Below, piece by piece: positions 3,814-42,761 of a stretch of 57,698 nucleotides of DNA. The stretch is from a virus (Duplodnaviria > Caudoviricetes), in the IMG/VR virus record IMGVR_UViG_3300032053_000088, positions 1-57,698 of that record. One strand, 5' to 3'. The notes beneath the pieces were generated by a model. It worked only from the letters and a program-made list of their open reading frames with translations, had not been told where the DNA came from and did no database searches. The position numbers were made by a program, and so were the translations under genes. Positions within the stretch are counted from its first letter, which is position 1. The number at the start of each line of letters is the position of its first letter.

Positions 3814-4130
3814 GGGCTTAAAAACCCTAAAAAACCCCCTAAAACCCCCACGTACGGGACAGCGGGGGTGGCCTTCTTGATAGGGGTCGCGAGGGGGCTG
3901 CGACACCCCCTCTTACCAGTTCGCTATACGGGGCCAACTTTTCCCGAAAAAAGAAATAAGTATTCATGGGTAGAACGCAACTCGGTTATCCAACAATTTT
4001 AAAATTTTTCCCCGTGCCAATAATTTTCAACCATTGACATACGTATCTACTTATGATATATTGATGTCAAATGGAAAAGAAATATAACATATGTTAAAAA
4101 AGCGATCCCCCCCCATGCTGCGATCCCACA

Positions 4131-5069
4131 TTGTTTTTATTTCATACCGTTTTCATGTCGTCACATGCCAGTCGGCGCCGATTTTACGTCAACAACCCTT
4201 CTTCACCTATGAACAACAAAATATCCCCTCCTTCTCCGCCACCGAAATCGCTACCTTTCAATATGTGGTTCAAGGATGTTGATGATGATGATGATAACAT
4301 TTTATGTGGTACCACAACAACCGCTGCTCCTCCTCAAACAAATACAGATATATATACAGATACATTCGATTTCCCCGTCACATTTGGTGCGATGCCAACT
4401 TGTCCTGTTCGTCTATTATATGAAAAAACGTGCGTGCTTCATGAAATGACAAGTAGAGGCAATCCGCATCCCAACCCCAATGATAAAATATTTTGTGAAG
4501 CGGTGGAGGATTTTAATAGAAAACAAACATCGATATTTCAATCTAATGGAATCATTTCCGGTAAAACGTTTAATCTTTCAATGGTTCCAGTGCCTATGGC
4601 TTATAAAGATATTTTACGAATCAACGATTCGTCTATATATGTTCCTTCTTATGACGCATCGAACGGCTATACGACTTTTTTAAATGTAAACTTGATAGGC
4701 ATGGGAATTAGTATGTGTATGTCTCCGCGGGGTGTTGCAGCGCCTCGTGTAGTTAGTTATGTTAAAGATTATGGATATGGTAATTTAAATACTCCGGAAT
4801 GGTTGGATAATTGTGAGGTGGATGAGTGTTATTTTTATTTAAAGGTTCAGTATAGATATCCGGCGTCAAAGGTTAATATGGAAACAGAAAAGAAACAAAT
4901 AGAATATAGTTTTAATGAATATTTAAACCGCGGGTTTTTGTATTTTACTGGAGATGTGGAGGTCGATGACTATGGTGAAGTTATAAAAAGTTTGACCATT
5001 AAGAGTCTCCGTTATAAACATACATTTGCCGGGCGGTTTCTTCCTTCGGATTTTGGGGTGTTGGTGTGA
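4131..5069 (+). CDS. Hypothetical protein (true start probably downstream)
   Basis: Long ORF. Confidence 0.65.
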   Translation: MFLFHTVFMSSHASRRRFYVNNPSSPMNNKISPPSPPPKSLPFNMWFKDVDDDDDNILCGTTTTAAPPQTNTDIYTDTFDFPVTFGAMPTCPVRLLYEKTCVLHEMTSRGNPHPNPNDKIFCEAVEDFNRKQTSIFQSNGIISGKTFNLSMVPVPMAYKDILRINDSSIYVPSYDASNGYTTFLNVNLIGMGISMCMSPRGVAAPRVVSYVKDYGYGNLNTPEWLDNCEVDECYFYLKVQYRYPASKVNMETEKKQIEYSFNEYLNRGFLYFTGDVEVDDYGEVIKSLTIKSLRYKHTFAGRFLPSDFGVLV

Positions 5070-16246: not shown

Positions 16247-16415
16247 AACTACAAGAAAACAAAGAAAAGAAACTGCTAATAAATCATATAAATCCTTTTA
16301 CGAAAGTCAGTTAGGATTATCTAGACGGAAGAGCGCGATTCGCCAGTGGGTTCCACCTGTTAAAGAAAAAACCGAAGAAAAAGTTGAAAATACCCAAGAA
16401 GTTAAGGAATTGTAA
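16236..16415 (+). CDS. Small basic hypothetical protein
   Basis: AGGA upstream of ATG. Confidence 0.5.
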   Translation: MKHKTTRKQRKETANKSYKSFYESQLGLSRRKSAIRQWVPPVKEKTEEKVENTQEVKEL

Positions 16416-16462
16416 AAAATTACTTGACGGGTTTTAAAATTGGTGTATATTTATAATTGAAT

Positions 16463-16536
16463 GGCAGTATCGTTCAACAGAAGGACCGGCGAATCATAAT
16501 CGCAAAACATCCGTGCGACTCGGATTACTGCTACCA
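16463..16536 (+). tRNA. tRNA-Met/Ile2(CAT)
   Basis: Loop atCATaa, CCA; promoter at 16424-16451. Confidence 0.75.
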
Positions 16537-16539
16537 AAT

Positions 16540-16614
16540 GGACTGATGGTGAAATGGATATCACGCAACCCTGCGGAGGTTGAGTTCCGGGTTCGACTCC
16601 CGGTTGGTCCGCCA
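16540..16614 (+). tRNA. tRNA-Arg(GCG)
   Basis: caacc-ctGCGga-ggttg, canonical T-arm, CCA. Confidence 0.88.
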
Positions 16615-16622
16615 GATTTTGT

Positions 16623-16952
16623 ATGGAAAAAGAAAAAGTGGTTATATATACGATTACTTCTCTTGTTGAAGATAATAATGGTGATATAGTGGAAGATAGG
16701 GTGGTGGGATGGTATTCGGACCTTAAAATTGCCAAACAATGTGTGGAAGAAGATTGGGCAGATTTTGATGAGGCTGGATATTACAATTATGTTGTAATTG
16801 AACGGAACGTTGAAGGTTTGTATAACATAAATGGATTTGAACTTGACATACAGACCGAATGGTGGTATAAGTTTGATGACGACAACAATAAATGGGTTGT
16901 GTGTGAAAAACCCGATTGGTCAGTAGGTATAGTTGGGTGGGGATTGGGTTAG
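16623..16952 (+). CDS. Hypothetical protein
   Basis: 109-aa ORF between tRNAs. Confidence 0.75.
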   Translation: MEKEKVVIYTITSLVEDNNGDIVEDRVVGWYSDLKIAKQCVEEDWADFDEAGYYNYVVIERNVEGLYNINGFELDIQTEWWYKFDDDNNKWVVCEKPDWSVGIVGWGLG

Positions 16953-16960
16953 AATTTTAA

Positions 16961-17044
16961 GCCGAAGTGGCACCAGTGGCGACTGCGCCGCTTTTGTAAA
17001 GCGGAATACAAACATCGGGGGTTCGAGTCCCTCCTTCGGCTCCA
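16961..17044 (+). tRNA. tRNA-Thr(TGT), enlarged variable region
   Basis: ccgct-ttTGTaa-agcgg; G1-C72, C2-G71. Confidence 0.8.
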
Positions 17045-17136
17045 TTTTTCTATAGAAACTAAGGTTAGTTGAAGGAACCTTAAACTAAAAATTCAACGCT
17101 TCTTTGGTATTTTGTTGTTGAAATGAAAATACCAAT

Positions 17137-17210
17137 GCCAGGTTGATGTAAAAGTAGCCTGTTAGTTTCGTAAACTAAATGAGTCGGAGCGTTACCGACA
17201 CTTGGCTCCA
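17137..17210 (+). tRNA. tRNA-Thr(CGT)
   Basis: ttagt-ttCGTaa-actaa; non-canonical T-loop agcgtta. Confidence 0.8.
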
Positions 17211-17276
17211 GTTTTTTCTTGACATTTTTCTGTTATGATGTATATTAAATAGTAGTAAAGAAATAAAGGAAAATAA

Positions 17277-17456
17277 ATGAAAAATATAGTAAGTATGTTA
17301 GTCGGTTTACTTCTTCTCGTGTCTATTGTAGGATGTGCAACTACCCCGCCAGCGCCAATGATTGAGAGTTCAGAGTATAGTAAGTCTCTTAAGTTTCAGT
17401 CGGATTTGATGAATGGAAATCCGAACGTTGTTCCTGTTCCTGCTTGGGTTCAGTAA
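17277..17456 (+). CDS. Small lipoprotein (59 aa)
   Basis: MKNIVSMLVGLLLLVSIVGC lipobox; promoter 17219-17246. Confidence 0.7.
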   Translation: MKNIVSMLVGLLLLVSIVGCATTPPAPMIESSEYSKSLKFQSDLMNGNPNVVPVPAWVQ

Positions 17457-17610
17457 TATGTGATTGATGTTTAGGAAGTTATAAAAAGCCAAAAATAGTT
17501 CTTGACAAACAATGGAGATGTGGTAAAGTATGTATGGTAAAAGAAAAAAGACCAAAAAAAGTCAAAAAAAGATTTGACAAAAACAGATTTGAATGATATA
17601 TATAGTTAGT

Positions 17611-17697
17611 ATGACAATGTGGCATAGACAATTTAAATATAGTGAATCACCTTCTATTGAAGATAATAGAGGTATCGGCGGAGGAGGAACCGCGTAA
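17611..17697 (+). CDS. Putative attenuator leader peptide MTMWHRQFKYSESPSIEDNRGIGGGGTA
   Basis: Short ORF between promoter (TTGACA 17574) and terminator; its 3' end carries the antiterminator strand. Confidence 0.6.
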   Translation: MTMWHRQFKYSESPSIEDNRGIGGGGTA

Positions 17698-17757
17698 GAA
17701 AGTAGAAGATTTTGCCCTCCAACGCCGATCTGAAAAGGTCGGCGTTTTTTGTTTTTT
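17674..17757 (+). promoter_or_regulatory. Attenuator: antiterminator (17674-17687 with 17716-17729) versus terminator (17721-17757)
   Basis: atcggcg-ga-ggagg pairs with cctcc-aa-cgccgat; terminator aacgccgatct-gaaa-aggtcggcgtt plus T-tract. Confidence 0.65.
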
Positions 17758-17758
17758 G

Positions 17759-17941
17759 GAGTGGTTTTGGTATGATACTATTTGAACCGAGAATCAAGTA
17801 TCCGTAGAGGCGAGCCGTAGGGAATGTCGGAGACGCCAGTTCAAGTGGGGACACTTGGGCCACCAACGTAGGTCAAAAAACCCTAATATTGATAGTTGTA
17901 TAATTTTCGGGTATTCTATGGAACAACCTGTCACCGCACTC
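17759..17941 (+). ncRNA. Putative multibranch structured RNA
   Basis: gagtg/cactc closure; helices gatac/gtatc, ggcg/cgcc, caagtg/cacttg, tgatag/ctgtca. Confidence 0.4.
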
Positions 17942-17994
17942 TCAGGCCATAGATTTCGAACGTTTCGTGTGTAACGTCCCGAAGACACACAAAT

Positions 17995-18068
17995 AGGCGG
18001 TTCGTATAATGGTATTACTCTGGTCTCCAGAACCAAGAATGTGGGTTCGATTCCTACACCGCTTGCCA
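17995..18068 (+). tRNA. tRNA-Trp(CCA)
   Basis: Loop ctCCAga, G73, CCA. Confidence 0.85.
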
Positions 18069-18073
18069 ACTTC

Positions 18074-18133
18074 TGCGCTCTACATAGTGAAACTCTATGG
18101 TAAAGCCGAGGCGCATTTCTCAAAAATATCGGC
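18074..18133 (+). ncRNA. Pseudoknot RNA, copy 1
   Basis: Homologous to 24011-24068 with compensatory changes. Confidence 0.65.
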
Positions 18134-18139
18134 AAATAT

Positions 18140-18172
18140 AGTCCTGTAATTTAACGGTAGAATATCTTTTTA
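18140..18172 (+). pseudogene. 5' tRNA fragment before endonuclease gene
   Basis: agtcctg-ta-attt-aacggt-agaat acceptor strand and D-arm without a 3' half. Confidence 0.45.
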
Positions 18173-18215
18173 TTGGTTGTTTGGAAGAAAGCATACTACT
18201 TATTAATGTAATGGT

Positions 18216-19019
18216 ATGAATAAAGAAGAATTAATAAAAGATATTGAAAATAACTTAAGTAGTTATGATATAGCTAAAAAATATAATAAAAGTCAAGGTT
18301 CTATATCATATTGGATTAAAAAATATAAAATAAAAACCAAGTTCAATAAAATAGGACAAAAGAAGTTAAATTGTTTAGATCCTCAAAAAAATAAAATAAA
18401 TTTAGAATATGATTGGAATTGGAAGGAAATTCAAAAAGATCATAATGTCGGTATGTCTTGGGATGAATTAACAAAAAAGTATAAAATTTGTAGGGTTACT
18501 TTACAAAAAGCAAAAAATCAAAAACTTGTTCAGTTTCGTAATCATAAAGAATCTATGAATTTTATTCATGAAATTGGTAAAGTTGATTATTCTCCATACA
18601 GAACCGAATCGTTTAGAAGAAAAATGTCAAAATTTGGAGGATTTAAAGATAAAGCAAGTGGAAGAGTTAAAGGGTCATATTATATTAAAAAAGATGATTC
18701 GAAAGTATGGTTACAGGGATCGTGGGAAATAAAATTTGCTACATTTTTAGATAAAAAAAATATACAATGGGATCGAAACAAAATAGGATATAGATATATT
18801 TTTGAAGGGAAGGATCGAAAATATTTCCCAGATTTTTTCTTAAAAGAATTCAATCTTTATGTGGAAGTAAAAGGAAGAGAAAAAGAAATGGATTATGAAA
18901 AATGGAAACAGTTTCCACTTAAACTTTTGATAGTAAAAAGAAATGATATATCAAATTTAGAAAAGTGGTATAATAACTATTTACGGCCAAATGGTGTAAC
19001 TGGTAACACTCGCTCTTGA
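18216..19019 (+). CDS. PD-(D/E)XK free-standing endonuclease (TnsA-N-like) with N-terminal HTH
   Basis: GSWE...YFPDFFL...YVEVKG. Confidence 0.8.
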   Translation: MNKEELIKDIENNLSSYDIAKKYNKSQGSISYWIKKYKIKTKFNKIGQKKLNCLDPQKNKINLEYDWNWKEIQKDHNVGMSWDELTKKYKICRVTLQKAKNQKLVQFRNHKESMNFIHEIGKVDYSPYRTESFRRKMSKFGGFKDKASGRVKGSYYIKKDDSKVWLQGSWEIKFATFLDKKNIQWDRNKIGYRYIFEGKDRKYFPDFFLKEFNLYVEVKGREKEMDYEKWKQFPLKLLIVKRNDISNLEKWYNNYLRPNGVTGNTRS

Positions 19020-19059
19020 TGTGGGCGGTATATAGGTTCGATTCCTGTTTTGGCTACCA
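18985..19059 (+). tRNA. tRNA-Ile(GAT)
   Basis: cgctc-ttGATgt-gggcg; overlaps end of endonuclease ORF. Confidence 0.8.
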
Positions 19060-19063
19060 ATTT

Positions 19064-19162
19064 AGGCGAGAGGGGTTGGAAGTATGACCTGTAGCTACAT
19101 AACTGGGTAACTTCAAGTCGAGATAGACTTCAATGGAACGTACGTGAAATCCTGTTAACGCA
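19064..19162 (+). ncRNA. Putative structured RNA sharing ACGTGAAATCC with 20585-20680
   Basis: Shared 11-mer and similar 5' end. Confidence 0.4.
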
Positions 19163-19169
19163 TTTTAAT

Positions 19170-19243
19170 TCCCGCCTGATGTAATAGTAGCCTGAGTGAC
19201 TGTTAATCACTATGTCTTCGTGCGATTCGAAGGGTGGGAGCCA
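19170..19243 (+). tRNA. tRNA-Asn(GTT)
   Basis: U1-A72, G73, loop ctGTTaa. Confidence 0.85.
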
Positions 19244-19248
19244 ATTTT

Positions 19249-19334
19249 GAGTGTGTGACCGATAAAGCGTAGAGGTAGCGCGGCCTTTGATGAAGGCTCG
19301 GAATACGTAGGTTCAATTCCTATCATACTCACCA
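19249..19334 (+). tRNA. Atypical tRNA (GAT-like loop on extended anticodon arm)
   Basis: GAGTGTG/CATACTC, T-arm, CCA; about 4 extra nt before anticodon stem. Confidence 0.5.
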
Positions 19335-19335
19335 A

Positions 19336-19437
19336 TTTTCAACAGAATCCCGTATAATGGAAATGTTCAGATAATTAGTATATTCTGGAACATACGGATC
19401 GGAAGATTACTAAATACACCGTTAATTCTGTTGAAAA
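19336..19437 (+). ncRNA. Stem-closed structured RNA
   Basis: 13-bp ttttcaacagaat/attctgttgaaaa terminal stem; possible ttagta/tactaa loop pairing. Confidence 0.5.
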
Positions 19438-19444
19438 CTTTTTC

Positions 19445-19599
19445 GCTCGCCCTTCGGAAGTATCTGTTGACTCCCAGATCGTGCCAGAGGACCGCCCTCC
19501 GAATCTGTTGGTGGACGGCTGCTAATCACAGTGAAGTTATCATGTGGAGAAATGCCGATTTTGCACAGATAGGCAGATCGACACTGCCGGCGAGCATCA
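19445..19599 (+). ncRNA. tRNA-like chimeric RNA (acceptor and T-arm with about 120-nt insert)
   Basis: GCTCGCC/GGCGAGC; ggcag-atcgaca-ctgcc. Confidence 0.55.
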
Positions 19600-19604
19600 T
19601 TTTA

Positions 19605-19693
19605 GTAGAATAAGGACATCTAAGCATTGCAATGCCAAGCGGAAAGGAACCGCTTAATGATGGGATGAGGTGCAATTCCCCACCGTATTCTAC
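19605..19693 (+). ncRNA. tRNA-like structured RNA
   Basis: gtagaata/tattctac closure; T-loop-like ggtgcaattcc. Confidence 0.4.
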
Positions 19694-19708
19694 AATATAA
19701 GATATTAT

Positions 19709-19783
19709 GGTGTTCATGGTGTATGGGCAGCATTTAAGCCTGTGGAGCTTAAGGAGCGATTTCAATAATATCGGCGGAACGGG
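19709..19783 (+). pseudogene. Degenerate tRNA-His(GTG)
   Basis: Intact D and anticodon arms (taagc-ctGTGga-gctta); broken T-arm and acceptor. Confidence 0.55.
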
Positions 19784-19842
19784 TTTTGTTCCCGCTAGTC
19801 GTATGAGTCATGGAGTCATGTTTCGGTATTATATTTTTGTAT

Positions 19843-19920
19843 GGAGTAGGTAGCATAATTGGTTAATGCCCTTGATTGTGAGTCAAGCAGATGCGGATTC
19901 GAATTCCGTTCTACTCCCCA
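19843..19920 (+). tRNA. tRNA-His(GTG)
   Basis: G-1:C73, cttga-ttGTGag-tcaag, CCA. Confidence 0.88.
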
Positions 19921-20031
19921 ACTTTCAAATCCGAAGGAACAGATTGCGAATTCTGTTGAGTTATTCTCTCTCATAGTGTAAAGTAGCACCTTGAACATCG
20001 GAGATTCTGGAACAAAAGAGAAAATATTTTT

Positions 20032-20294
20032 TCATACACCAGTCAACGAGATTCCGTAACCGGAAAAGTTGAAGGTGAAAGAAGAGGTTGTAGATTTTAC
20101 TCTAAAGTAAATGGAATGATATACGACTCGGACATCAATGCTGCTATCAACATTGGAAAAATGTCCAAACATCCCGTATCACAGACCACAAATCTGACTT
20201 ATGGGCAGGCGTCAGTCAATACGCCACACGAATATAAGTCCCCGCTCCTCGGGGCCGTTCAAGCACCTATCCCTTTAGGGTAGGTGTTGTTGAC
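20032..20294 (+). mobile_element. tnpB: IS200/IS605-family tnpB 3' remnant with right end
   Basis: Frame SYTSQ...DSDINAAINI...GQASVNTP; right-end hairpin cacctatcc-cttta-gggtaggtg followed by TTGAC. Confidence 0.8.
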
Positions 20295-20296
20295 AT

Positions 20297-20497
20297 TCGA
20301 TGTATAGGGTATGACGGGCGGAGAAAATCCCGTAAGTTGTGGTCCGTATAGGGATACCCACATTTCTCTAGTTGTCAGGAAATCTTCGAACTTTTCTGAC
20401 ACACGATTTAGCTAAACTAATATAGTGAGTGGCCGGACACTTAAAATGAGGCACTTCACAGTGTATATAACCTGTAGAAAATAGCAGCTATATTCGA
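20297..20497 (+). ncRNA. Multibranch structured RNA (about 200 nt)
   Basis: tcga.gtatag/ctatat.tcga closure; at least 5 internal hairpins. Confidence 0.5.
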
Positions 20498-20505
20498 TTT
20501 TTCAT

Positions 20506-20581
20506 GGCCTGCTCATCTATCGGCTAGGATATCAGGTTTTCAACCTGGAGAGCGTGGGTTCGATTCCCCGGCAGGCTACCA
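20506..20581 (+). tRNA. tRNA-Glu(TTC)
   Basis: tcagg-ttTTCaa-cctgg, CCA. Confidence 0.82.
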
Positions 20582-20584
20582 ATT

Positions 20585-20680
20585 TAGACGAAAAGGATAG
20601 GCGACTCCTACCGGCCGTTCGAATCGGTAAGGTAAACGGGAAGAGTTGCAACGTCGCACGTGAAATCCCTGAGTAGTCTA
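20585..20680 (+). ncRNA. Structured RNA with loop-E-like GAA/AGUA internal loop
   Basis: tagac/gtcta, ggat/atcc and gcgac/gtcgc stems. Confidence 0.5.
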
Positions 20681-20711
20681 TTTTTGTATAATATTTTAAT
20701 ATTTATAGTAT

Positions 20712-21080
20712 ATGAGAATACTATTTTTATCATTATTTGTCGGTTTGTTTTTAATAACGACTGCGTGCAACAGTGGAAACAATGTTGAGTTGAATTACTC
20801 TAAAATGGAAAAACAATACGTTGAATTAACTGAATATTATGGAATAGCAGTTGATGAAGGATTCAAAAATGAAAAAGAAGCCAGCGAATTCGTAAGACAT
20901 TATTTACGAACACGAGATTCAATAAATTATTATAACCATCCTTTAAGAGATAGAAGATATGACGTTTCTGTATTGTGGAATATGAAATGGGAATTAAACG
21001 AAGCATGTAAACATACTAATTCGTTAATGAATAATTTAGATCCGGAATACGTCAAAAAACATCCTAAGTATTCTAAATAA
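20712..21080 (+). CDS. Putative lipoprotein
   Basis: Signal peptide with ITTAC lipobox. Confidence 0.75.
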   Translation: MRILFLSLFVGLFLITTACNSGNNVELNYSKMEKQYVELTEYYGIAVDEGFKNEKEASEFVRHYLRTRDSINYYNHPLRDRRYDVSVLWNMKWELNEACKHTNSLMNNLDPEYVKKHPKYSK

Positions 21081-21086
21081 GTTTTC

Positions 21087-21165
21087 GGGTCTGTGGTGTT
21101 TAATGGTATAACATGTCAGCCTTTTAAGCTGAACGATGTCGGTTCGACTCCGACCGGGCCCACCA
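21087..21165 (+). tRNA. tRNA-Lys(TTT)
   Basis: tcagc-ctTTTaa-gctga, CCA. Confidence 0.9.
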
Positions 21166-21168
21166 AAA

Positions 21169-21302
21169 ATTTGTAATACTAATAGTTAGTGCGATATCTT
21201 GACTTCCACCAAGCCGATCTACTGGCCATAGACGGAAGCAAAGTTGGGCAGCATGAATTAATTATTCAATAAGTCTGTAAAACCTTGGATAGTATTACAA
21301 AT
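21169..21302 (+). ncRNA. Stem-closed structured RNA
   Basis: 13-bp atttgtaatacta/tagtattacaaat terminal stem. Confidence 0.5.
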
Positions 21303-21314
21303 AATTAGAAAAAT

Positions 21315-21390
21315 GCTCTCTTAGCTTAATTGGAAGAGCGGTTGTCTTCGAAACAATCAGGTACAGGTTCGAATCCTGTAGGGAGTACCA
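21315..21390 (+). tRNA. tRNA-Arg(TCG)
   Basis: gttgt-ctTCGaa-acaat, CCA. Confidence 0.88.
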
Positions 21391-21394
21391 TTTT

Positions 21395-21468
21395 GGCTCT
21401 GAAGCTCAGTGGCGAGCAGTCGGCCGTTAACCGACTGGAATTGGGTTCGATTCCCATCGGAGCCTCCA
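21395..21468 (+). tRNA. tRNA with GTT anticodon, C33, G1-C72 and U73
   Basis: gtcgg-ccGTTaa-ccgac; GGCTCTG/CGGAGCC-T-CCA. Confidence 0.75.
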
Positions 21469-21479
21469 ATTTAAAAAAT

Positions 21480-21558
21480 GCACTCGTAGTCTAACTGGAT
21501 AGGCACCTGACTTCTAATCAGGATTTATGGTTGGGTTCGAATCCCCCCGAGTGTACCA
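21480..21558 (+). tRNA. tRNA-Arg(TCT)
   Basis: cctga-ctTCTaa-tcagg, CCA. Confidence 0.82.
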
Positions 21559-21664
21559 TTTTAAAGGTGTAAATTATTTGTTTCCATAAGTTTGTTGATA
21601 TTTATATATGCTTACAAAAAATGTAAGTAGTTTTGAAAACTCAACAAAAGAGGGATGAAATAAT

Positions 21665-22204
21665 ATGACTTATACTGTAAATCTGACATGGACTCCAAGT
21701 CCGGTCGAACAAAAAGTTACATCGTATAATGTTTTCATGGCGGCAGGTGGTGGAATGGAAACATTTATAGGATCTACAGCGGAACCACATTATTCTATAG
21801 TAGTTGATCAAGGATCGGTTTATCATTTTAAAGTTCAAGCAGTCAACTTAGCCGGTGGTGGTGTGATATCTAACGAAGTAGATACGCCATCTTTGCCAAC
21901 TAAAGCTGCAACTCCAGTAATGGTTATTACTGGAAATGACGTAACGTTGAATTGGGATGTTAATCCTACAGAACAACTGGTAACTTCATATAAAGTTCAT
22001 ATGAATGTTAATGGTGGAATGACCATGGAAGCTGTAGAAGTATTGGGAACAAGTCATACTTTAGTAGATTTGGTTCCTGGTGTATATAACTTCTTTGTTC
22101 AGGCCGTTAATTTGGCCGGCGCCGGTGCATTATCTGATGCCGCAGTTACCCCATCATTACCAAGTGCTCCACTGGATTTAGTATTAACAATCGCCGTTAG
22201 CTAA
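21665..22204 (+). CDS. Tandem fibronectin type III domain protein
   Basis: Two repeats V.L.W..P.EQ.VTSY.V...Y.F.VQAVNLAG. Confidence 0.8.
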   Translation: MTYTVNLTWTPSPVEQKVTSYNVFMAAGGGMETFIGSTAEPHYSIVVDQGSVYHFKVQAVNLAGGGVISNEVDTPSLPTKAATPVMVITGNDVTLNWDVNPTEQLVTSYKVHMNVNGGMTMEAVEVLGTSHTLVDLVPGVYNFFVQAVNLAGAGALSDAAVTPSLPSAPLDLVLTIAVS

Positions 22205-22308
22205 AAATAATTAAATGAAGTTAAAACGACCAACTGCTCCTACAAATGTTAGATTAACTATTACTATTAGTAAATAATACGAATTAGTTGGTAAAATAAC
22301 AACAATTA

Positions 22309-22340
22309 GAGGCGCATGAGGGTGCGCCTTTTCTTTTTTC
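22309..22340 (+). terminator. Intrinsic terminator
   Basis: aggcgca/tgcgcct stem plus T-tract. Confidence 0.6.
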
Positions 22341-22343
22341 TAT

Positions 22344-22419
22344 CGTCTCGTAGCTCATTCAGTTAGAGCAACGTCTTGATATATCAAGGTGGTTGGGGCA
22401 GAGTCAACCGGGACGACCA
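22344..22419 (+). pseudogene. tRNA with aberrant anticodon arm (possibly Ile-GAT derived)
   Basis: Intact acceptor, D and T arms and CCA; cttga-tata-tcaag replaces the normal arm. Confidence 0.55.
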
Positions 22420-22424
22420 ATTTC

Positions 22425-22500
22425 GGTCATGAGGACAAACAGCAGAGTCGTCTCCCTGTCACGGAGAAAATAGCGAGGGCAGCACTCGTCTTGACCGCCA
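22425..22500 (+). tRNA. tRNA-Asp(GTC)
   Basis: tctcc-ctGTCac-ggaga, G73; T-loop ggcagca. Confidence 0.78.
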
Positions 22501-22506
22501 TTTTAC

Positions 22507-22593
22507 TGGGGCGTGGTGTAACTGGTAACACAGCTCGCTTTGAACGAGAAGACGGAATCGCTTGTGTGGGTTCGAATCCTACTGCCCCAGCCA
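22507..22593 (+). tRNA. tRNA-Gln(TTG) with long variable arm
   Basis: U1-A72, G73, loop ctTTGaa, about 16-nt variable region. Confidence 0.78.
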
Positions 22594-22596
22594 ATT

Positions 22597-22671
22597 TGGG
22601 ACTGGTGTATGTCTTAAGCACGCTACCCGGTTTAGGTAGAAGACGGTGTATTAAATCCCGGTCCTGAGCCA
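22597..22671 (+). pseudogene. Degenerate tRNA
   Basis: D and anticodon arms (ctacc/ggtag), broken T-arm, CCA. Confidence 0.45.
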
Positions 22672-22673
22672 AT

Positions 22674-22765
22674 TTGAATCATACACACCGTTCTCAGAAA
22701 GATATACGGGGCTTACGAAAGTAAGAAATGCGAAACTCCACGTAACGGGAATCTATATGATTCAA
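22674..22765 (+). ncRNA. Stem-closed structured RNA
   Basis: ttgaatcata/tatgattcaa terminal stem; cttac-gaaa-gtaag hairpin. Confidence 0.5.
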
Positions 22766-22772
22766 TCTATTT

Positions 22773-22832
22773 AAGATGCCTTCCAGCAACCAAAAAAACT
22801 TGCCTTATACGCAAACCAAAAACCGGCATCTT
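22773..22832 (+). ncRNA. Skipping-rope-like RNA bearing an isolated anticodon-like hairpin (TAT)
   Basis: aagatgcc/ggcatctt stem, CAGCAA, A/C-rich linkers, ttgc-ctTATac-gcaa. Confidence 0.5.
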
Positions 22833-22866
22833 GTTTTTATACAAAATTTATGATATTTATAGTCAT

Positions 22867-23142
22867 ATGAATTTTACTATAACAATTGAAGATAGTTCCG
22901 ATAGAAAAAACAAATCGTTTCATCCAAGAGGACATTCTGATTGGGTCAATGTAAAGGATGAACTTAAAAAATTTATTAAAAAAGAGTTAAAGTTGACTAA
23001 TAAAGAACTTAATGATTTGAAAATTTTGTGTAGAGAATGTAATAATATTACTGGCACCGTCTTGATTAAAGGAATTATATTAAGTAATTCGAGTGATGCT
23101 CGTGATAAACTTCTTAAAAAAATTCACAATAAAAAGATTTAA
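22867..23142 (+). CDS. Hypothetical protein
   Basis: TATTTATA just upstream of ATG. Confidence 0.7.
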   Translation: MNFTITIEDSSDRKNKSFHPRGHSDWVNVKDELKKFIKKELKLTNKELNDLKILCRECNNITGTVLIKGIILSNSSDARDKLLKKIHNKKI

Positions 23143-23143
23143 T

Positions 23144-23223
23144 GGCTCTATGGTGTTTAACGGTAATAGCATAACTGCCTCTTAAGCAGCTAGGTTCGGG
23201 TTCGAATCCCGGTGGGGCCACCA
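23144..23223 (+). tRNA. tRNA-Lys(CTT)
   Basis: ctgc-ctCTTaa-gcag, CCA. Confidence 0.88.
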
Positions 23224-23238
23224 ATTTAAAATTATTTA

Positions 23239-23331
23239 TTATTACATACGGACAAGGCTTAAGGATCGTTGAAGACCAATGCAAATTTGGTATGTATAAA
23301 CGTAGGTGGGTAGCGAATGGTGATGTAATAA
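23239..23331 (+). ncRNA. Stem-closed structured RNA
   Basis: ttattacat/atgtaataa terminal stem. Confidence 0.4.
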
Positions 23332-23342
23332 GAGTTTAAAAT

Positions 23343-23430
23343 GGTGCGTTATCCCGTAGGGGTAGCGGTATGCGCTGTAAACGCATTGTCTTAAATGGCT
23401 CGGGTGGTTCAACTCCATCACGCACCACCA
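23343..23430 (+). tRNA. tRNA-Tyr(GTA)
   Basis: atgcg-ctGTAaa-cgcat, long variable arm, CCA. Confidence 0.88.
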
Positions 23431-23432
23431 AT

Positions 23433-23548
23433 TTTGATGGTTGTAGGAATCGTATGTAGAAGACGAGAATCCGGGAAAAACGGTGTTGTGCTAGATTGGC
23501 CAAGAGACACAACAAATAATAGGTGCAAATCCTATCACAATCATCAAA
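23433..23548 (+). ncRNA. tRNA-like RNA with 12-bp terminal stem and T-arm
   Basis: tttgatggttgt/acaatcatcaaa; atagg-tgcaaat-cctat. Confidence 0.5.
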
Positions 23549-23555
23549 TTTTTAT

Positions 23556-23630
23556 GGGGTAGTGGTCGAAAAATAAGGCAGCTCTCTGCAAAAGAGCATT
23601 ATGAATGTGTAAATCATTCCTATCCCTCCA
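23556..23630 (+). tRNA. tRNA-Cys(GCA)
   Basis: gctct-ctGCAaa-agagc, U73, CCA. Confidence 0.82.
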
Positions 23631-23649
23631 AATTTCAAAATAAAAATTT

Positions 23650-23736
23650 TGAATCGGTTAGGTTGGTGTTTTGTTCCGCCAACGTTGAGTTATCAGATTG
23701 AGTCATACGAACATTATGTGCTGATGCACCGATTCA
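23650..23736 (+). ncRNA. Stem-closed structured RNA
   Basis: tgaatcggt/accgattca terminal stem with two internal hairpins. Confidence 0.45.
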
Positions 23737-23741
23737 TTTTT

Positions 23742-23806
23742 TCGTCTAATAGTTTAAAATCTAAAATACCAGCTTTGGTGAAGGTGAAGTCTCACTTGAG
23801 CGACCA
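23742..23806 (+). pseudogene. Highly degenerate tRNA-like sequence
   Basis: D-arm-like, short middle hairpin, T-arm-like, CCA end. Confidence 0.3.
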
Positions 23807-23810
23807 ATTT

Positions 23811-23929
23811 TCCTTAAACTCGTAGAGATAAACTCTGCTAAAACACAATCGGTTGAAGGCGCCAAATGCTGATAATTGAAGGCTTTTCGTCGGACGCATT
23901 CGCGACCTAACGGGAACGAGGTTTAAGGA
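23811..23929 (+). ncRNA. Stem-closed structured RNA
   Basis: tccttaaac.tcgt/acga.gtttaagga terminal stem. Confidence 0.5.
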
Positions 23930-23930
23930 T

Positions 23931-24005
23931 AGGGATAAAAGAGACTAGGCCATCGCTTACCCTGTCACGGTAAGAAGGCGGGTGCGATCCCCGTTATCCC
24001 TGCCA
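23931..24005 (+). tRNA. tRNA-Asp(GTC), second copy
   Basis: ttacc-ctGTCac-ggtaa, G73, CCA; weak D-arm. Confidence 0.7.
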
Positions 24006-24010
24006 TTTTC

Positions 24011-24068
24011 CGCGCTCTACACGGTGTAACTCTGTGGTAAAGCCGAAGCGCGACTTAAAAATATCGGC
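24011..24068 (+). ncRNA. Pseudoknot RNA, copy 2
   Basis: Homologous to 18074-18133. Confidence 0.65.
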
Positions 24069-24075
24069 ACAATTT

Positions 24076-24221
24076 GGGACTAAAAGGCAAATCTTCTGTG
24101 AGTGAAAACTAGAACTGTTCGTTAACAAAAACGTAATTGACTTTTGTTGAACTGATGGTCGGAAAACGATCTTTAAGTAGGCCAACACGGATGGACGGTT
24201 CAAATCCGTCTAGTTCCACCA
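24076..24221 (+). ncRNA. Mini tmRNA-like RNA with alanine-type acceptor
   Basis: GGGACTA/TAGTTCC (G3.U70), A73, CCA, T-arm gacgg-ttcaaat-ccgtc, no D-stem, about 95-nt internal domain. Confidence 0.6.
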
Positions 24222-25761: not shown

Positions 25762-25886
25762 GTTAATAAATAGTATTGAATTTTTGATTTCGATTCAAAA
25801 AGGCGGGACCAATTTACATATTACCGTTCGGTAACATTAGTAGATAAAAACTATAAAAACTATAAAATATTACCGATAGGGAATAA

Positions 25887-26209: not shown

Positions 26210-26252
26210 TTTCGTTCTTGACAATGAGATGTTATGTGGTAAGTTATACTAT

Positions 26253-29515: not shown

Positions 29516-29641
29516 AAGTTTATATTATCAGGGTTAAAAGTTATCATTTATAAATATAATCAAACAAATCAAATACGTTATATTTATCGACACGATTTTT
29601 ACTTGACATTTGAAAAAGGTGTAGTATATTTATAATCAAAC

Positions 29642-29716
29642 GGGCGATTAGCTCAGTGGTAGAGCAGGTTCCCTACACGGACAAGGTCAGCGGTTCAAAT
29701 CCGTTATCGCCCACCA
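29642..29716 (+). tRNA. tRNA-Val(TAC), C33
   Basis: Canonical Val body, loop ccTACac, CCA; promoter 29603-29630. Confidence 0.85.
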
Positions 29717-29806
29717 TTTTAGACGGCTGATGGTATCGCCGGATAAAGGTCATTTTAGACCAATGAGTTAGAGCGTATAAAATTAACTTTAACAACCATC
29801 TATTTA

Positions 29807-33433: not shown

Positions 33434-33531
33434 GGGGCCATCGTTTATATTGGATCGGTTGGAGGTCCGTTTGTTTTGAACTGAAAAAGTTCTTGACATT
33501 TTGTAGAGTTGATGTATATTTATACATCGTT

Positions 33532-33574
33532 GGGGCCATCGTTCAACGGTAGGGCATTCCCCGTGGCTCCACCA
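33532..33574 (+). pseudogene. Internally deleted tRNA-Ala (acceptor, D-arm, CCA)
   Basis: GGGGCCA/TGGCTCC-ACCA with G3.U70; promoter 33493-33520. Confidence 0.65.
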
Positions 33575-33590
33575 AATTTGATCTTTGAAT

Positions 33591-33677
33591 TGCGGGGACA
33601 GGCCGGAAGATGCCGGGGACGCTCATAACGTCCGTTCGAAAGAACTATGGTTGGTGTAACTCCAACCTCCGCTACCA
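33591..33677 (+). tRNA. tRNA-Met(CAT), initiator-like acceptor with long variable arm
   Basis: 1:72 mismatch, GCGGGG, ggacg-ctCATaa-cgtcc, gttc-gaaa-gaac variable arm. Confidence 0.7.
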
Positions 33678-33681
33678 ATTT

Positions 33682-33998: not shown

Positions 33999-34043
33999 AA
34001 TTCTATTTGACATTTTTTCTTTCTGTGTTATATTTATTTGTAC

Positions 34044-40618: not shown

Positions 40619-41029
40619 ATGCCATGGCAGATGAAAAAAATCACACCTAAATATTTATTTACCGAATACATTTTACCATCTAATGATGTAGAATTACAGA
40701 AGTTTTCAAAAAATTATAAACTTGATATGATGGAACAAGTTGTGTCTTCTATTGATTACGCTTTTAAACACAATTTACCATTTATTGAAGTTTTTCAATT
40801 TAAAAACTCAGATTACGTAATAACTTTATCTGAGAAGGATTACCCAGCCAACCTAGATCATATATACAATTTTTATTTAGAAATAGAATTATATGAATTG
40901 TGTAATAGGGCGGCTAAGTTACAACAAGCGATTAGGGATAAATCCAAAAATAATGAAAAAAAACAAAAGAACTCAAGAAAAGGCGTTGGACAAAAGTCCA
41001 ATAATTCCACAGAGAGACAAAATCCGTGA
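40619..41029 (+). CDS. Hypothetical protein
   Basis: 136-aa ORF upstream of phoH. Confidence 0.7.
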   Translation: MPWQMKKITPKYLFTEYILPSNDVELQKFSKNYKLDMMEQVVSSIDYAFKHNLPFIEVFQFKNSDYVITLSEKDYPANLDHIYNFYLEIELYELCNRAAKLQQAIRDKSKNNEKKQKNSRKGVGQKSNNSTERQNP

Positions 41030-42761
41030 GTTGTTAAAAATTCGTGAAAGGGAATTGACTCCAACTCAACAAAAATTCTTAGAAATAGCTACAGACAAAA
41101 ACACAAAATTGATGTTCGTATCAGGGCCTGCCGGAACATCAAAAACATATATGTCAATATATGTGGCACTTCACTTACTTAATGAAAGACGGATTAGTGA
41201 TATTATTTATATTAGAAGTGCAGTCGAATGTTCAGACGCAAAAATCGGATTTTTACCTGGAGAAATTGATGAAAAAATGTCTCCGTATATTCAACCACTT
41301 TTAGATAAAATGGCTGAACTTCTGTCAAAAGGAGATGTGGACACCCTTATGAAAGAAGAACGAGTAACAGGAGTTCCTGTGGGATTTTTGAGAGGATTAA
41401 ACTGGAACGCTAAAGTTATTATCGCAGACGAGTGTGTATCCGGAAATCAATTTATACAAACATCCGATGGAAAAATAAAATTGAAATCTCTTTATAATAA
41501 ATTTGTTCATAAAACCCCATTACCACTAATAAAAACTTATAATGAACATACGACTCATTTTGAAGATAAAAGAATTATACGTGTTATGAATAGGGGAATA
41601 CAAAAAACCGTTTCCGTGGTTTTAGGAAATAGAAATGTTGTTTGTACTTCTGATCATAAATTTTTAACAGAAAATGGATGGATAGAAGCTAAAAATCTTA
41701 CTTCATTTACTCCAGTTATAGCAAATAATGAACTAAAATTACAAACATTAGATGTCATGAATGACGATCAATTACAAATTTTTTTGGGATCGTTTTTGGG
41801 CGACGGACATGTTTCAAAAGTAGGAAATAACAGATATAGATTACGAATCATTCATGGAGAAAAACAGAAAGAATATTGTAGTTGGAAATCCAACATTTTT
41901 CATTCTAAACTTGAATTTATAAAGGAGAATGGATATTCTAAAAAACCAGCATTTCGATTTTCTACAAAATGTTTTGCTATGCCGTTTTCTATTCCAACAG
42001 ACCAAAAGAAAACATGTCCGAAATGGATAATTGATAAACTCGACGTGCGTGGTATATCCATTTGGTATATGGATGATGGAAGCATCAATAAATCCAAGAA
42101 TAATATAAAAATATCAACTTGTAGTTTTGATATTGATACTCAAAAATTATTTGTGGAAAAGTTCAAAACGTTTGGAATCGATTGCTCAATAAATGAAGAT
42201 AAAGGAAACGATTATTTGTATTATTATCTAAATTTTGATGCAGAAAATTCCAGAAAATTGATGGAGTTGGTTCGCCCATATATTCATGAAAATTTAGAAT
42301 ATAAATTGGATGTAGTTAGCAAAAATAAATACGTATTTAACAATAAATTTTTAAATTATCGTCATATTGTTCCTGACAAGATTATAAATAACGAGAATGA
42401 AGAGGTAGTATATGATATAGAAGTAGAAGATAATCACAATTTCATAATAACTTCAGGAACTCGTGGTAAATTGTTAAGAAGTTATTCGGGAGTTGTGGTT
42501 CATAATTGTCAAAATATGACCTATAAGGAGCTTTTTACATTAATAACACGCATTGGTCAGTTTAGTAAAGTATTTATTTTAGGTGATCCTGACCAATCGG
42601 ATATCAACGGAAAGAGCGGTTTTATAAAAATGTTGTCCAATTTCGAGGATGAAGAAAGTAAAGAAAATGGTATTCACGTTTTTAAATTTACCGACGAAGA
42701 TATCGTAAGAAGTGGGTTAGTTCAATTTATTATTAAAAAGGTCAAAAAAACAAATCAATAA
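40953..42761 (+). CDS. phoH: PhoH-family ATPase containing an intein
   Basis: GPAGTSKT, GFLPG, LRGL, ADE/CQN, GDPDQSD, DIVRS. Confidence 0.92.
   Translation: MKKNKRTQEKALDKSPIIPQRDKIRELLKIRERELTPTQQKFLEIATDKNTKLMFVSGPAGTSKTYMSIYVALHLLNERRISDIIYIRSAVECSDAKIGFLPGEIDEKMSPYIQPLLDKMAELLSKGDVDTLMKEERVTGVPVGFLRGLNWNAKVIIADECVSGNQFIQTSDGKIKLKSLYNKFVHKTPLPLIKTYNEHTTHFEDKRIIRVMNRGIQKTVSVVLGNRNVVCTSDHKFLTENGWIEAKNLTSFTPVIANNELKLQTLDVMNDDQLQIFLGSFLGDGHVSKVGNNRYRLRIIHGEKQKEYCSWKSNIFHSKLEFIKENGYSKKPAFRFSTKCFAMPFSIPTDQKKTCPKWIIDKLDVRGISIWYMDDGSINKSKNNIKISTCSFDIDTQKLFVEKFKTFGIDCSINEDKGNDYLYYYLNFDAENSRKLMELVRPYIHENLEYKLDVVSKNKYVFNNKFLNYRHIVPDKIINNENEEVVYDIEVEDNHNFIITSGTRGKLLRSYSGVVVHNCQNMTYKELFTLITRIGQFSKVFILGDPDQSDINGKSGFIKMLSNFEDEESKENGIHVFKFTDEDIVRSGLVQFIIKKVKKTNQ
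41433..42506 (+). mobile_element. Intein with LAGLIDADG homing endonuclease (358 aa)
   Basis: Starts CVSG, CTSDHKFLT block B, GSFLGDG and WYMDDG, ends VVHN before Cys+1. Confidence 0.92.

Follow-up and report, generated by a model that had tools for sequence, protein, structure and literature searches.

The IMG/VR virus record IMGVR_UViG_3300032053_000088 (57,698 nucleotides, nt; estimated completeness 16%; this whole stretch of DNA is called the window below) carries, within its array of tRNA genes, two copies of a short element that belongs to an uncatalogued, real family of pseudoknotted RNAs of phage tRNA arrays. Ten further distinct relatives, from other phages, prophages and a metagenome contig, share its fold, and paired positions in its stems change together. 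We propose, with a probability of roughly 0.45, that the element is a small RNA gene occupying a “tRNA slot”, that it is putatively excised by tRNA-processing enzymes to act as a stand-alone RNA, and that its invariant stacked helix forms a specific binding site or active core for a conserved partner.

Both window copies (copy 1 and copy 2, Table 1) lie on the + strand where a sequence-only reading of the window had placed them, and each begins, as that reading had also said, 5 nt past an encoded CCA. They are 5.9 kb apart and 90% identical column by column. A 35-nt degenerate pattern that they share matches the window exactly twice (0 expected from 100 shuffles); R3, the covariance model used for our final searches, finds the same two copies when run on the window with its filters off, the next best match being no better than E=0.14. 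Every difference between the copies within stems A and B preserves a standard pair: in helix A the outer pair is T-A in copy 1 and C-G in copy 2 and the inner pair T.G and T-A, and in hairpin B a T-A becomes C-G and an A-T becomes G.T. This pair-by-pair parse bore out all of the compensatory differences that had been read by eye from the two copies. The GCCGA and TCGGC strands of helix C are complementary in both copies and identical between them, so that these two copies alone give no covariation for helix C. Elsewhere the copies differ by insertions and deletions of 2-5 nt, which rules out a coding role for the element; a promoter within it was rejected because the spacing is variable. A relative of copy 2 is also present in contigs from three runs of sediment DNA; where helix A meets the linker (24050-24054), it has gained 1 nt and lost 2 nt.

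The family comprises 12 distinct sequences, spread over a number of unrelated lineages of phages. Besides the window copies these come from a metagenome contig (L142), two IMG/VR phages (L189, from record G002, and L190, from G003, a 78-kb provirus record), three Mycobacterium abscessus prophages (prophiGD54-2, prophi86-1 and prophiT49-2, the last two with identical elements) and six cluster-M mycobacteriophages (Nanosmite, Rey, Estes, Aziz, and MrMagoo and GardenSalsa, whose elements are again identical). The strand order is A 5′, hairpin B, C 5′, A 3′, linker (L3) and C 3′, that of an H-type pseudoknot; most members span 49-63 nt, and those with an insert in the linker 89-99 nt. Helix A has 4-6 base pairs (bp) with an invariant CGC/GCG core; J1, which follows its 5′ strand, is 2-3 nt long and mostly starts with CU (CUA, CU, CUC, GU or GUC); hairpin B consists of 5 bp capped by a loop of 7-10 nt, the loops being of four sequence types; and J2, which follows hairpin B, is GUAAA in seven members, UAUA in two, and UAAA, GUGAA or AUC in one each. 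Helix C pairs GCCGA, immediately 5′ of the A 3′ strand, with a distal UCGGC. Because no nucleotide separates C from the A 3′ strand, the two helices are able to stack into one of about 10-11 bp.

The linker L3 is 6-13 nt long, or 43 and 51 nt with the insert in MrMagoo and Aziz, and the distance from GCCGA to UCGGC ranges from 10 to 56 nt. The 3′ end of L3 is rich in purines and especially A (38-75% A over at most its last eight nt, against a background of 21-34%), and L3 could lie in the groove of helix A. The base after UCGGC is unpaired in 12/12 members (A in eight, U in four), and the three bases beyond it are CCA in 5/12, CAA in 4/12 and other triplets in 3/12. We rejected a pairing of the B loop with L3, for which 4 bp are possible in copy 1 and L190, as it is not kept in the other members; no complementarity of GCCGA or UCGGC to the downstream tRNA was found.

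Pairs were counted in a structure-blind MAFFT alignment of the 12 sequences (16 pairs, 180 cells). Standard pairs fill 95.6% of the cells as against 83.4 +/- 1.5% after shuffling, a value that none of 500 shuffles reached; changes on both sides of a pair occur in 9/16 pairs (reached by 2/500 shuffles); and the covariation score is 0.341 versus 0.128 in the shuffles. When the partners were slid by 1-3 columns as a control, 25.7-44.4% of the cells paired. Both-sided covariation was seen in 3/6 pairs of helix A (the other three never vary), in all five pairs of helix B, none of which is constant, and in 1/5 pairs of helix C, where four never vary. Eight cells are unpaired: three are the outermost A pair where helix A has 5 bp, and five fall in two B columns at a MAFFT gap in L189, Rey and Estes, and these five do pair in an anchor-based parse. 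The latter pairs 170/170 cells over 11 sequences, a figure that is no independent test since the parse picks pairing segments. That A and B contain G.U pairs agrees with the tRNA strand, on which the element always lies, being the sense strand. The earlier proposal of a structured RNA under selection, with H-type topology, is thus strengthened by the ten relatives, by the covariation of A and B and by one clean change in C, between Estes and Rey.

These counts also bear on whether we are dealing with a repeat that acts as DNA (a recombination site, a homing-endonuclease site or a promoter remnant) and has no RNA function. Homing-endonuclease-like open reading frames (ORFs) and repeated promoter-like modules are indeed frequent in the window array, but compensatory changes on both sides of 9/16 pairs, G.U pairs that would be A.C on the opposite strand, and the wide range of distances between GCCGA and UCGGC are all at odds with a DNA site; we disfavour this explanation to the point of finding it barely credible.

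The genomic setting is more constant downstream of the element than upstream. A tRNA or tRNA-like gene begins 5-14 nt downstream in 11/12 members, and 6/12 have a tRNA ending 0-5 nt upstream, the exceptions being L189, Nanosmite, Rey, Estes, MrMagoo and Aziz. The description of the element as lying just after a tRNA, which had been drawn from the window, therefore holds there and does not hold for the family in general. In L142 the element is 3 nt past tRNA-Lys(ttt) and 7 nt ahead of the next tRNA start; as this contig is syntenic with window 16441-18148, its copy is the orthologue of copy 1, with the tRNA-Lys intervening between tRNA-Trp and the element. tRNA-Leu(tag) starts 14 nt past the L189 copy, which has no tRNA directly before it, and in L190 the element takes up the whole interval from tRNA-Cys to tRNA-Leu(tag). 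In the cluster-M phages it is 5-6 nt upstream of tRNA-Phe and is preceded by a small annotated ORF, not a tRNA. Spacing of this kind equals that of adjacent tRNAs in arrays, which is why we say that the element sits in a tRNA slot. Its neighbours vary (Trp, Asp-like, Lys, Cys or none upstream; Leu(tag), Phe or others downstream) and copy 1 has stayed intact next to a downstream tRNA that looks truncated; both observations argue that the element has a function of its own.

Seven base pairs (4/5 in helix C and 3/6 in helix A) are invariant across source loci whose GC content runs from 36% to 60%, while hairpin B covaries freely. This speaks against a mere structural roadblock and for sequence-specific recognition, groove triples or chemistry, and base pairs fixed across such different genomes point to a conserved partner or a conserved chemistry. 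For the stand-alone RNA that we favour, we infer transcription, the processing route, the groove contacts and any trans-acting role as follows. The element would be transcribed inside a polycistronic tRNA precursor; an RNase P cut at the 5′ end of the downstream tRNA, 5-14 nt away, would free its 3′ side, and processing of the 3′ end of the upstream tRNA, where such a tRNA exists, would free its 5′ side. The compact pseudoknot would then persist as a small RNA, whose invariant stacked helix and junction would present a sequence-specific binding or active surface to a partner common to very different hosts.

The same setting could instead belong to a cis-acting element of the tRNA precursor: a structured leader on the 5′ side or trailer on the 3′ side that governs in what order, or how efficiently, RNase P, RNase Z or RNase E cut, or that keeps exonucleases or 5′-end-dependent RNases out of the downstream tRNA, and that has no role once released. 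In favour of such an element, 11/12 members stand before a tRNA or tRNA-like gene at about the single-strand length that RNase P needs, and for the six members without a tRNA just upstream the downstream tRNA is the sole constant partner. A roadblock or insulator, though, needs no seven invariant pairs over so wide a range of GC content while hairpin B varies freely; the downstream tRNA changes between lineages; copy 1 is conserved beside an apparently truncated downstream tRNA; and it is at one tRNA junction per genome that the element is found. We consider a purely cis-acting role unlikely, though of the alternatives it is the one to be taken most seriously.

Several results count against an excised RNA built around a stacked pseudoknot, and we set them together here. 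Nested minimum-energy folding is ordinary for both window copies (z = 0.01 and -0.65), so that the support for the element is its covariation and not its energy. The near-constant downstream tRNA fits a cis-acting leader equally well. Helix C is invariant in 11/12 members, and when it is counted alone 160/2000 shuffles equal the observed pairing. For the pseudoknot stem there is a single compensatory change, found in a single sequence: Estes and Rey have three differences in the element, two of which turn the outer G-C of helix C into U-A. Since GCCGA or UCGGC was part of every word or pattern by which the distant members were found, the invariance of helix C is partly an effect of ascertainment. 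We therefore regard the GCCGA/UCGGC pseudoknot, as read from these sequences, as supported but thinly, and as not proven. A minimal H-type pseudoknot with its second C pair flipped lies 39 nt upstream of the L189 copy (L189, - strand, 4117-4149), with the same linker length and the same AAAUAUCG tail as that copy; its hairpin is 5′ of helix A, not in loop 1, and it may be a diverged or rearranged paralogue, although this is doubtful.

The relatives were reached by several routes, and most searches gave chance matches. BLAST from L190 led to the M. abscessus prophages, and further BLAST to the cluster-M phages; L189 as a BLAST query gave no match, a 737-amino-acid (aa) ORF as query led to no related viral locus, and copy 1, searched by blastn in 50,697 phage records, found 15 matches, all weak and due to chance, at E >= 2, with no T4-type tRNA region among them. 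In viral contigs the pattern GGTAAAGCCGANGCGC matched at least 118 stretches, none of them element-like among the matches listed, and CTCTACNNNNTGNAACTNNNNGGTAAAG matched none; the matches to CTANNNNNTGNAACTNNNNNGTAAAGCC, three in viral contigs and 18 in genome contigs, were all spurious. A pattern with the two middle C pairs left free recovered L189 and L190 again, plus one chance match in a coding region. The pattern TAAAGCCGA..AAATNTCGGC matched 32 stretches, 30 of which were new, lacked the G+C-rich helix A and the hairpin, and serve as a negative control. One of 45 stretches from a pattern scan of metagenomes was genuine, and a plasmid collection gave a single chance match.

An R3 search of ten whole phage records found one copy each in seven, compared with two in the window, and no copy in Bongo, Reindeer or the jumbo-phage relative G001/L169. 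The Bongovirus phages (Bongo, L235 at about 192-300; SlimJimmy; Reindeer), which lack the element, have a different spacer of 109 nt between tRNA-Ser and tRNA-Phe, and this contains a 7-bp acceptor-like stem and a T-arm-like hairpin. The element is common to an uncultured sediment jumbo phage, other uncultured phages, M. abscessus prophages and cluster-M phages that grow on M. smegmatis mc2 155, a laboratory strain, and since cultured phages carry it, it is directly testable.

Comparison with catalogued RNAs agrees with the earlier statement that the element could be matched to no named family: Rfam 15 gave no family on either copy at the gathering threshold. Its 29 matches on the window are 28 tRNAs and a transfer-messenger RNA (tmRNA), and neither copy is overlapped. 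On short stretches at E<=10, copy 1 returned the neighbouring tRNA alone, and copy 2 was overlapped by just one match, to a nematode snoRNA model, with a meaningless score of 14.2 bits (E=5.2) where the threshold is 48.

The size of the element, its compact pseudoknot and its conserved core are those of a small ribozyme, and we considered whether it might be a putative self-cleaving ribozyme of a new class. Ribozymes resembling that of hepatitis delta virus (HDV) have the strand order P1-P2-P3-L3-P3'-P1'-(P1.1)-P4-J4/2-P2', in which the P3 hairpin comes directly before the 3′ strand of P1. The only hairpin of the element lies between the 5′ strands of A and C, and just 5′ of the A 3′ strand there is C alone, which pairs distally; we rejected an HDV-like fold, a nested double pseudoknot, on this ground, and HDV-type Rfam models matched neither copy at E<=10, nor L191 and L192 at E<=1. 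Pistol, hammerhead and twister were rejected likewise, their strand order or core motifs being absent when their consensus features were mapped by hand.

The role of such a ribozyme in these arrays would be that of theta ribozymes beside gut-phage tRNAs, which are described, in excerpts of Kienbeck et al. (2024, PMC10879173), as minimal HDV-like ribozymes beside phage tRNA genes with their cleavage site at tRNA 3′ ends. In those excerpts they are pseudoknotted RNAs of about 50-60 nt that adjoin tRNA genes of Caudoviricetes on the same strand, as the element does, and they count as tRNA-associated if they cleave within +/-5 nt of the tRNA 3′ end; in our family, 6/12 members start 0-5 nt from a tRNA 3′ end. 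They differ in that 4.5% of their tRNAs encode CCA (same excerpts) whereas the window tRNAs encode it, in that their hosts are gut Bacteroidota and those of the element are mycobacteria and a sediment organism, and in that 6/12 members of our family have no upstream tRNA. Moreover, because the window tRNAs have an encoded CCA and then a 5-nt spacer, a cut at the 5′ end of the element would give no mature tRNA end. No Rfam ribozyme model matches even at E<=10 (251-nt search space), and J1 and J2 vary, whereas ribozyme cores are usually fixed there. Taking these points together, we see self-cleavage as a long shot.

The stacked helix C+A, followed by an unpaired base and often by CCA or CAA, also recalls the acceptor arm of a tRNA. 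In viral tRNA-like structures a 3′-terminal strand closes a pseudoknotted stack, a topology to which that of the element may be likened. On such a reading the element would be a putative mimic of the acceptor/T minihelix, which enzymes or toxins active on tRNA 3′ ends could bind or modify and which would serve as a decoy or a handle. The base past UCGGC is unpaired in all members, with the triplets given above, and four members have a T-loop-like U(G/U)NRA loop in hairpin B, a fifth (the same in Rey and Estes) beginning UUCAA. Yet the window copies have AAU and CAA at the position in question although the window tRNAs nearly all encode CCA; CCA occurs there only in two mycobacterial lineages that are related to each other; the neighbouring genes, and not the element, are what the Rfam tRNA and Tymo_tRNA-like models match; and the stack is 1-2 bp short of a tRNA minihelix. 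An acceptor-arm mimic is hence, for us, a longer shot still than self-cleavage. We also considered a broader conjecture, in which the element is no passive spacer but an active RNA whose partner is universal, either as a new class of self-cleaving ribozyme in the maturation of tRNA arrays or as an acceptor-arm mimic by which phages of widely differing hosts keep tRNA 3′-end enzymes or defence toxins occupied; we rate it as improbable, though less so than either of these two specific forms.

Abutting helices, an A-rich third loop and conserved helix sequences would equally suit a putative H-type pseudoknot aptamer of the preQ1-I or SAM-II kind, in which the sensing of a metabolite would alter processing or read-through into the next tRNA. 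The preQ1-I and SAM-II riboswitches, telomerase RNA and frameshift pseudoknots share with the element two abutting, stacked helices and an A-rich loop in a position to run along the first helix, and in H-type aptamers and triplex pseudoknots the helix sequences are, as here, conserved and not merely complementary. The element differs from them by having a whole hairpin in loop 1 and no expression platform, slippery site or ORF. No terminator or ribosome-binding site follows it (no terminator-like site lies past either window copy), no Rfam riboswitch model matches, and what stands downstream is a tRNA, not an mRNA. Metabolite sensing seems to us very improbable, and slightly less likely than the acceptor-arm mimic. 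Type III antitoxin RNAs (ToxI-like) differ too: they are tandem short repeats beside a toxin endoribonuclease gene, and the element is single-copy in seven records, its two window copies lie 5.9 kb apart, and its neighbours are tRNAs.

Returning to the stand-alone RNA in a tRNA slot, phage arrays hold more than tRNAs. The T4 small stable RNAs C and D (species 1 and 2) lie in the T4 tRNA cluster and are thought to be co-transcribed with the tRNAs and cut out with them, and their function is still unexplained; the element, too, is a non-tRNA RNA inside a phage tRNA cluster, on the tRNA strand. Other such RNAs accompany the element itself, tmRNA in the window and in L190/G003, and GOLLD in G003. 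The GOLLD RNA of G003 scores 191.6 bits at L192 258-681, in the same prophage array as the element and a tmRNA. From mycobacterial arrays, excerpts of PMC5966550 and PMC9569102 list tmRNA, a structured RNA of about 430 nt and GOLLD; these excerpts make no mention of the element. GOLLD and tmRNA resemble it as structured non-tRNA RNAs that travel with tRNA arrays, G003 having all three, and differ in being catalogued and 350-800 nt long compared with about 55 nt. Full-text literature searches gave no description of the element; the supplementary lists of the theta-ribozyme paper and of PMC10690425, which in excerpt reports a catalogue of 10,006 candidate viral RNAs, lie outside those searches and may include the motif. 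The element joins tmRNA, GOLLD, the theta ribozymes and T4 RNAs C and D as a compact and well supported new family; should it turn out to be a ribozyme, decoy or processing signal, a further part would be known of the way in which phages assemble and defend a translation toolkit of their own.

Table 1. Positions, in the window, of the two element copies, their parts and the neighbouring features.
Feature	Position	Strand	Evidence or score
Element copy 1, 60 nt	18074-18133	+	R3 68.0 bits, E 5.4e-15
Copy 1 helix A 5′ strand	18074-18079		
Copy 1 J1	18080-18082		
Copy 1 hairpin B	18083-18099		loop 18088-18094
Copy 1 J2	18100-18104		
Copy 1 helix C 5′ strand	18105-18109		
Copy 1 helix A 3′ strand	18110-18115		
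Copy 1 linker L3, purine/A-rich	18116-18128		
Copy 1 helix C 3′ strand	18129-18133		
Copy 1 conserved unpaired A	18134		
Element copy 2, 58 nt	24011-24068	+	R3 72.5 bits, E 4.4e-16
Copy 2 helix A 5′ strand	24011-24016		
Copy 2 J1	24017-24019		
Copy 2 hairpin B	24020-24036		
Copy 2 J2	24037-24041		
Copy 2 helix C 5′ strand	24042-24046		
Copy 2 helix A 3′ strand	24047-24052		
Copy 2 L3	24053-24063		
Copy 2 helix C 3′ strand	24064-24068		
Copy 2 conserved A	24069		
tRNA-Trp(cca), encoded CCA, upstream of copy 1	17995-18068	+	ARAGORN; Rfam tRNA 50.1 bits
Probable remnant of a tRNA 5′ part, 7 nt past copy 1	18141-18165	+	compared with L142
267-aa ORF next to the tRNA remnant	18216-19019	+	weak helix-turn-helix and DUF7487 matches
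tRNA-Asp-like gene, upstream of copy 2	23931-24005	+	read from sequence
146-nt tRNA-like gene, 7 nt past copy 2	24076-24221	+	read from sequence
Promoter-like module	16415-16484, 17216-17246, 17498-17531, 26214-26247, 29594-29663, 33484-33553, 34004-34038	+	

Around the two copies the window array is dense. ARAGORN calls a tmRNA and 24 tRNAs on its + strand. The upstream neighbour of copy 1 is a tRNA-Trp, as had been reported, and the “tRNA-Asp” named before copy 2 stands in a reduced form: it is called a tRNA by neither ARAGORN nor Rfam, and we therefore describe it as tRNA-Asp-like and not as a canonical tRNA-Asp. Its acceptor stem is 7 bp long, its anticodon loop reads CUGUCAC (GUC, Asp), and a T arm and an encoded GCCA end are present, together with an irregular D arm and a T loop of sequence UGCGAUC.

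Downstream of copy 1, the counterpart in L142 of the probable tRNA remnant looks like an intact tRNA 5′ end. No 3′ half that matches the remnant was found in the window, and neither ARAGORN nor Rfam places a tRNA between 18134 and 18985. The 267-aa ORF beside it may be a homing-endonuclease-like insertion that truncated the tRNA, at a site where the syntenic L142 appears to keep one. The gene downstream of copy 2 has a perfect 7-bp acceptor stem (24076-24082/24211-24217), which its predicted fold retains, a canonical T arm and an ACCA end. It carries about 70 surplus nt and its anticodon arm is not clear; Rfam gives weak tmRNA-type matches alone, and the gene could be a mini tmRNA-like RNA or an intron-bearing tRNA.

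Further tRNA-type 3′ ends, each with a T arm and NCCA and missed by both ARAGORN and Rfam, are seen on the + strand at 19310-19338, 25784-25814 and 33653-33681, and the true number of non-canonical tRNA-like genes in the array is probably higher than that listed. Many sub-operons of the tRNA region open with the promoter-like module of Table 1, which consists of TTGACA, about 16 nt and TATATT or similar. A second short motif (CCA, (A/T)TTT, AGRCG) stands just past some tRNAs, at 19035-19079, 20557-20601 and 29692-29736 (+ strand). Elsewhere in the window, at 40893-42761 (+ strand), a PhoH-like ATPase is split by an intein with a LAGLIDADG endonuclease.

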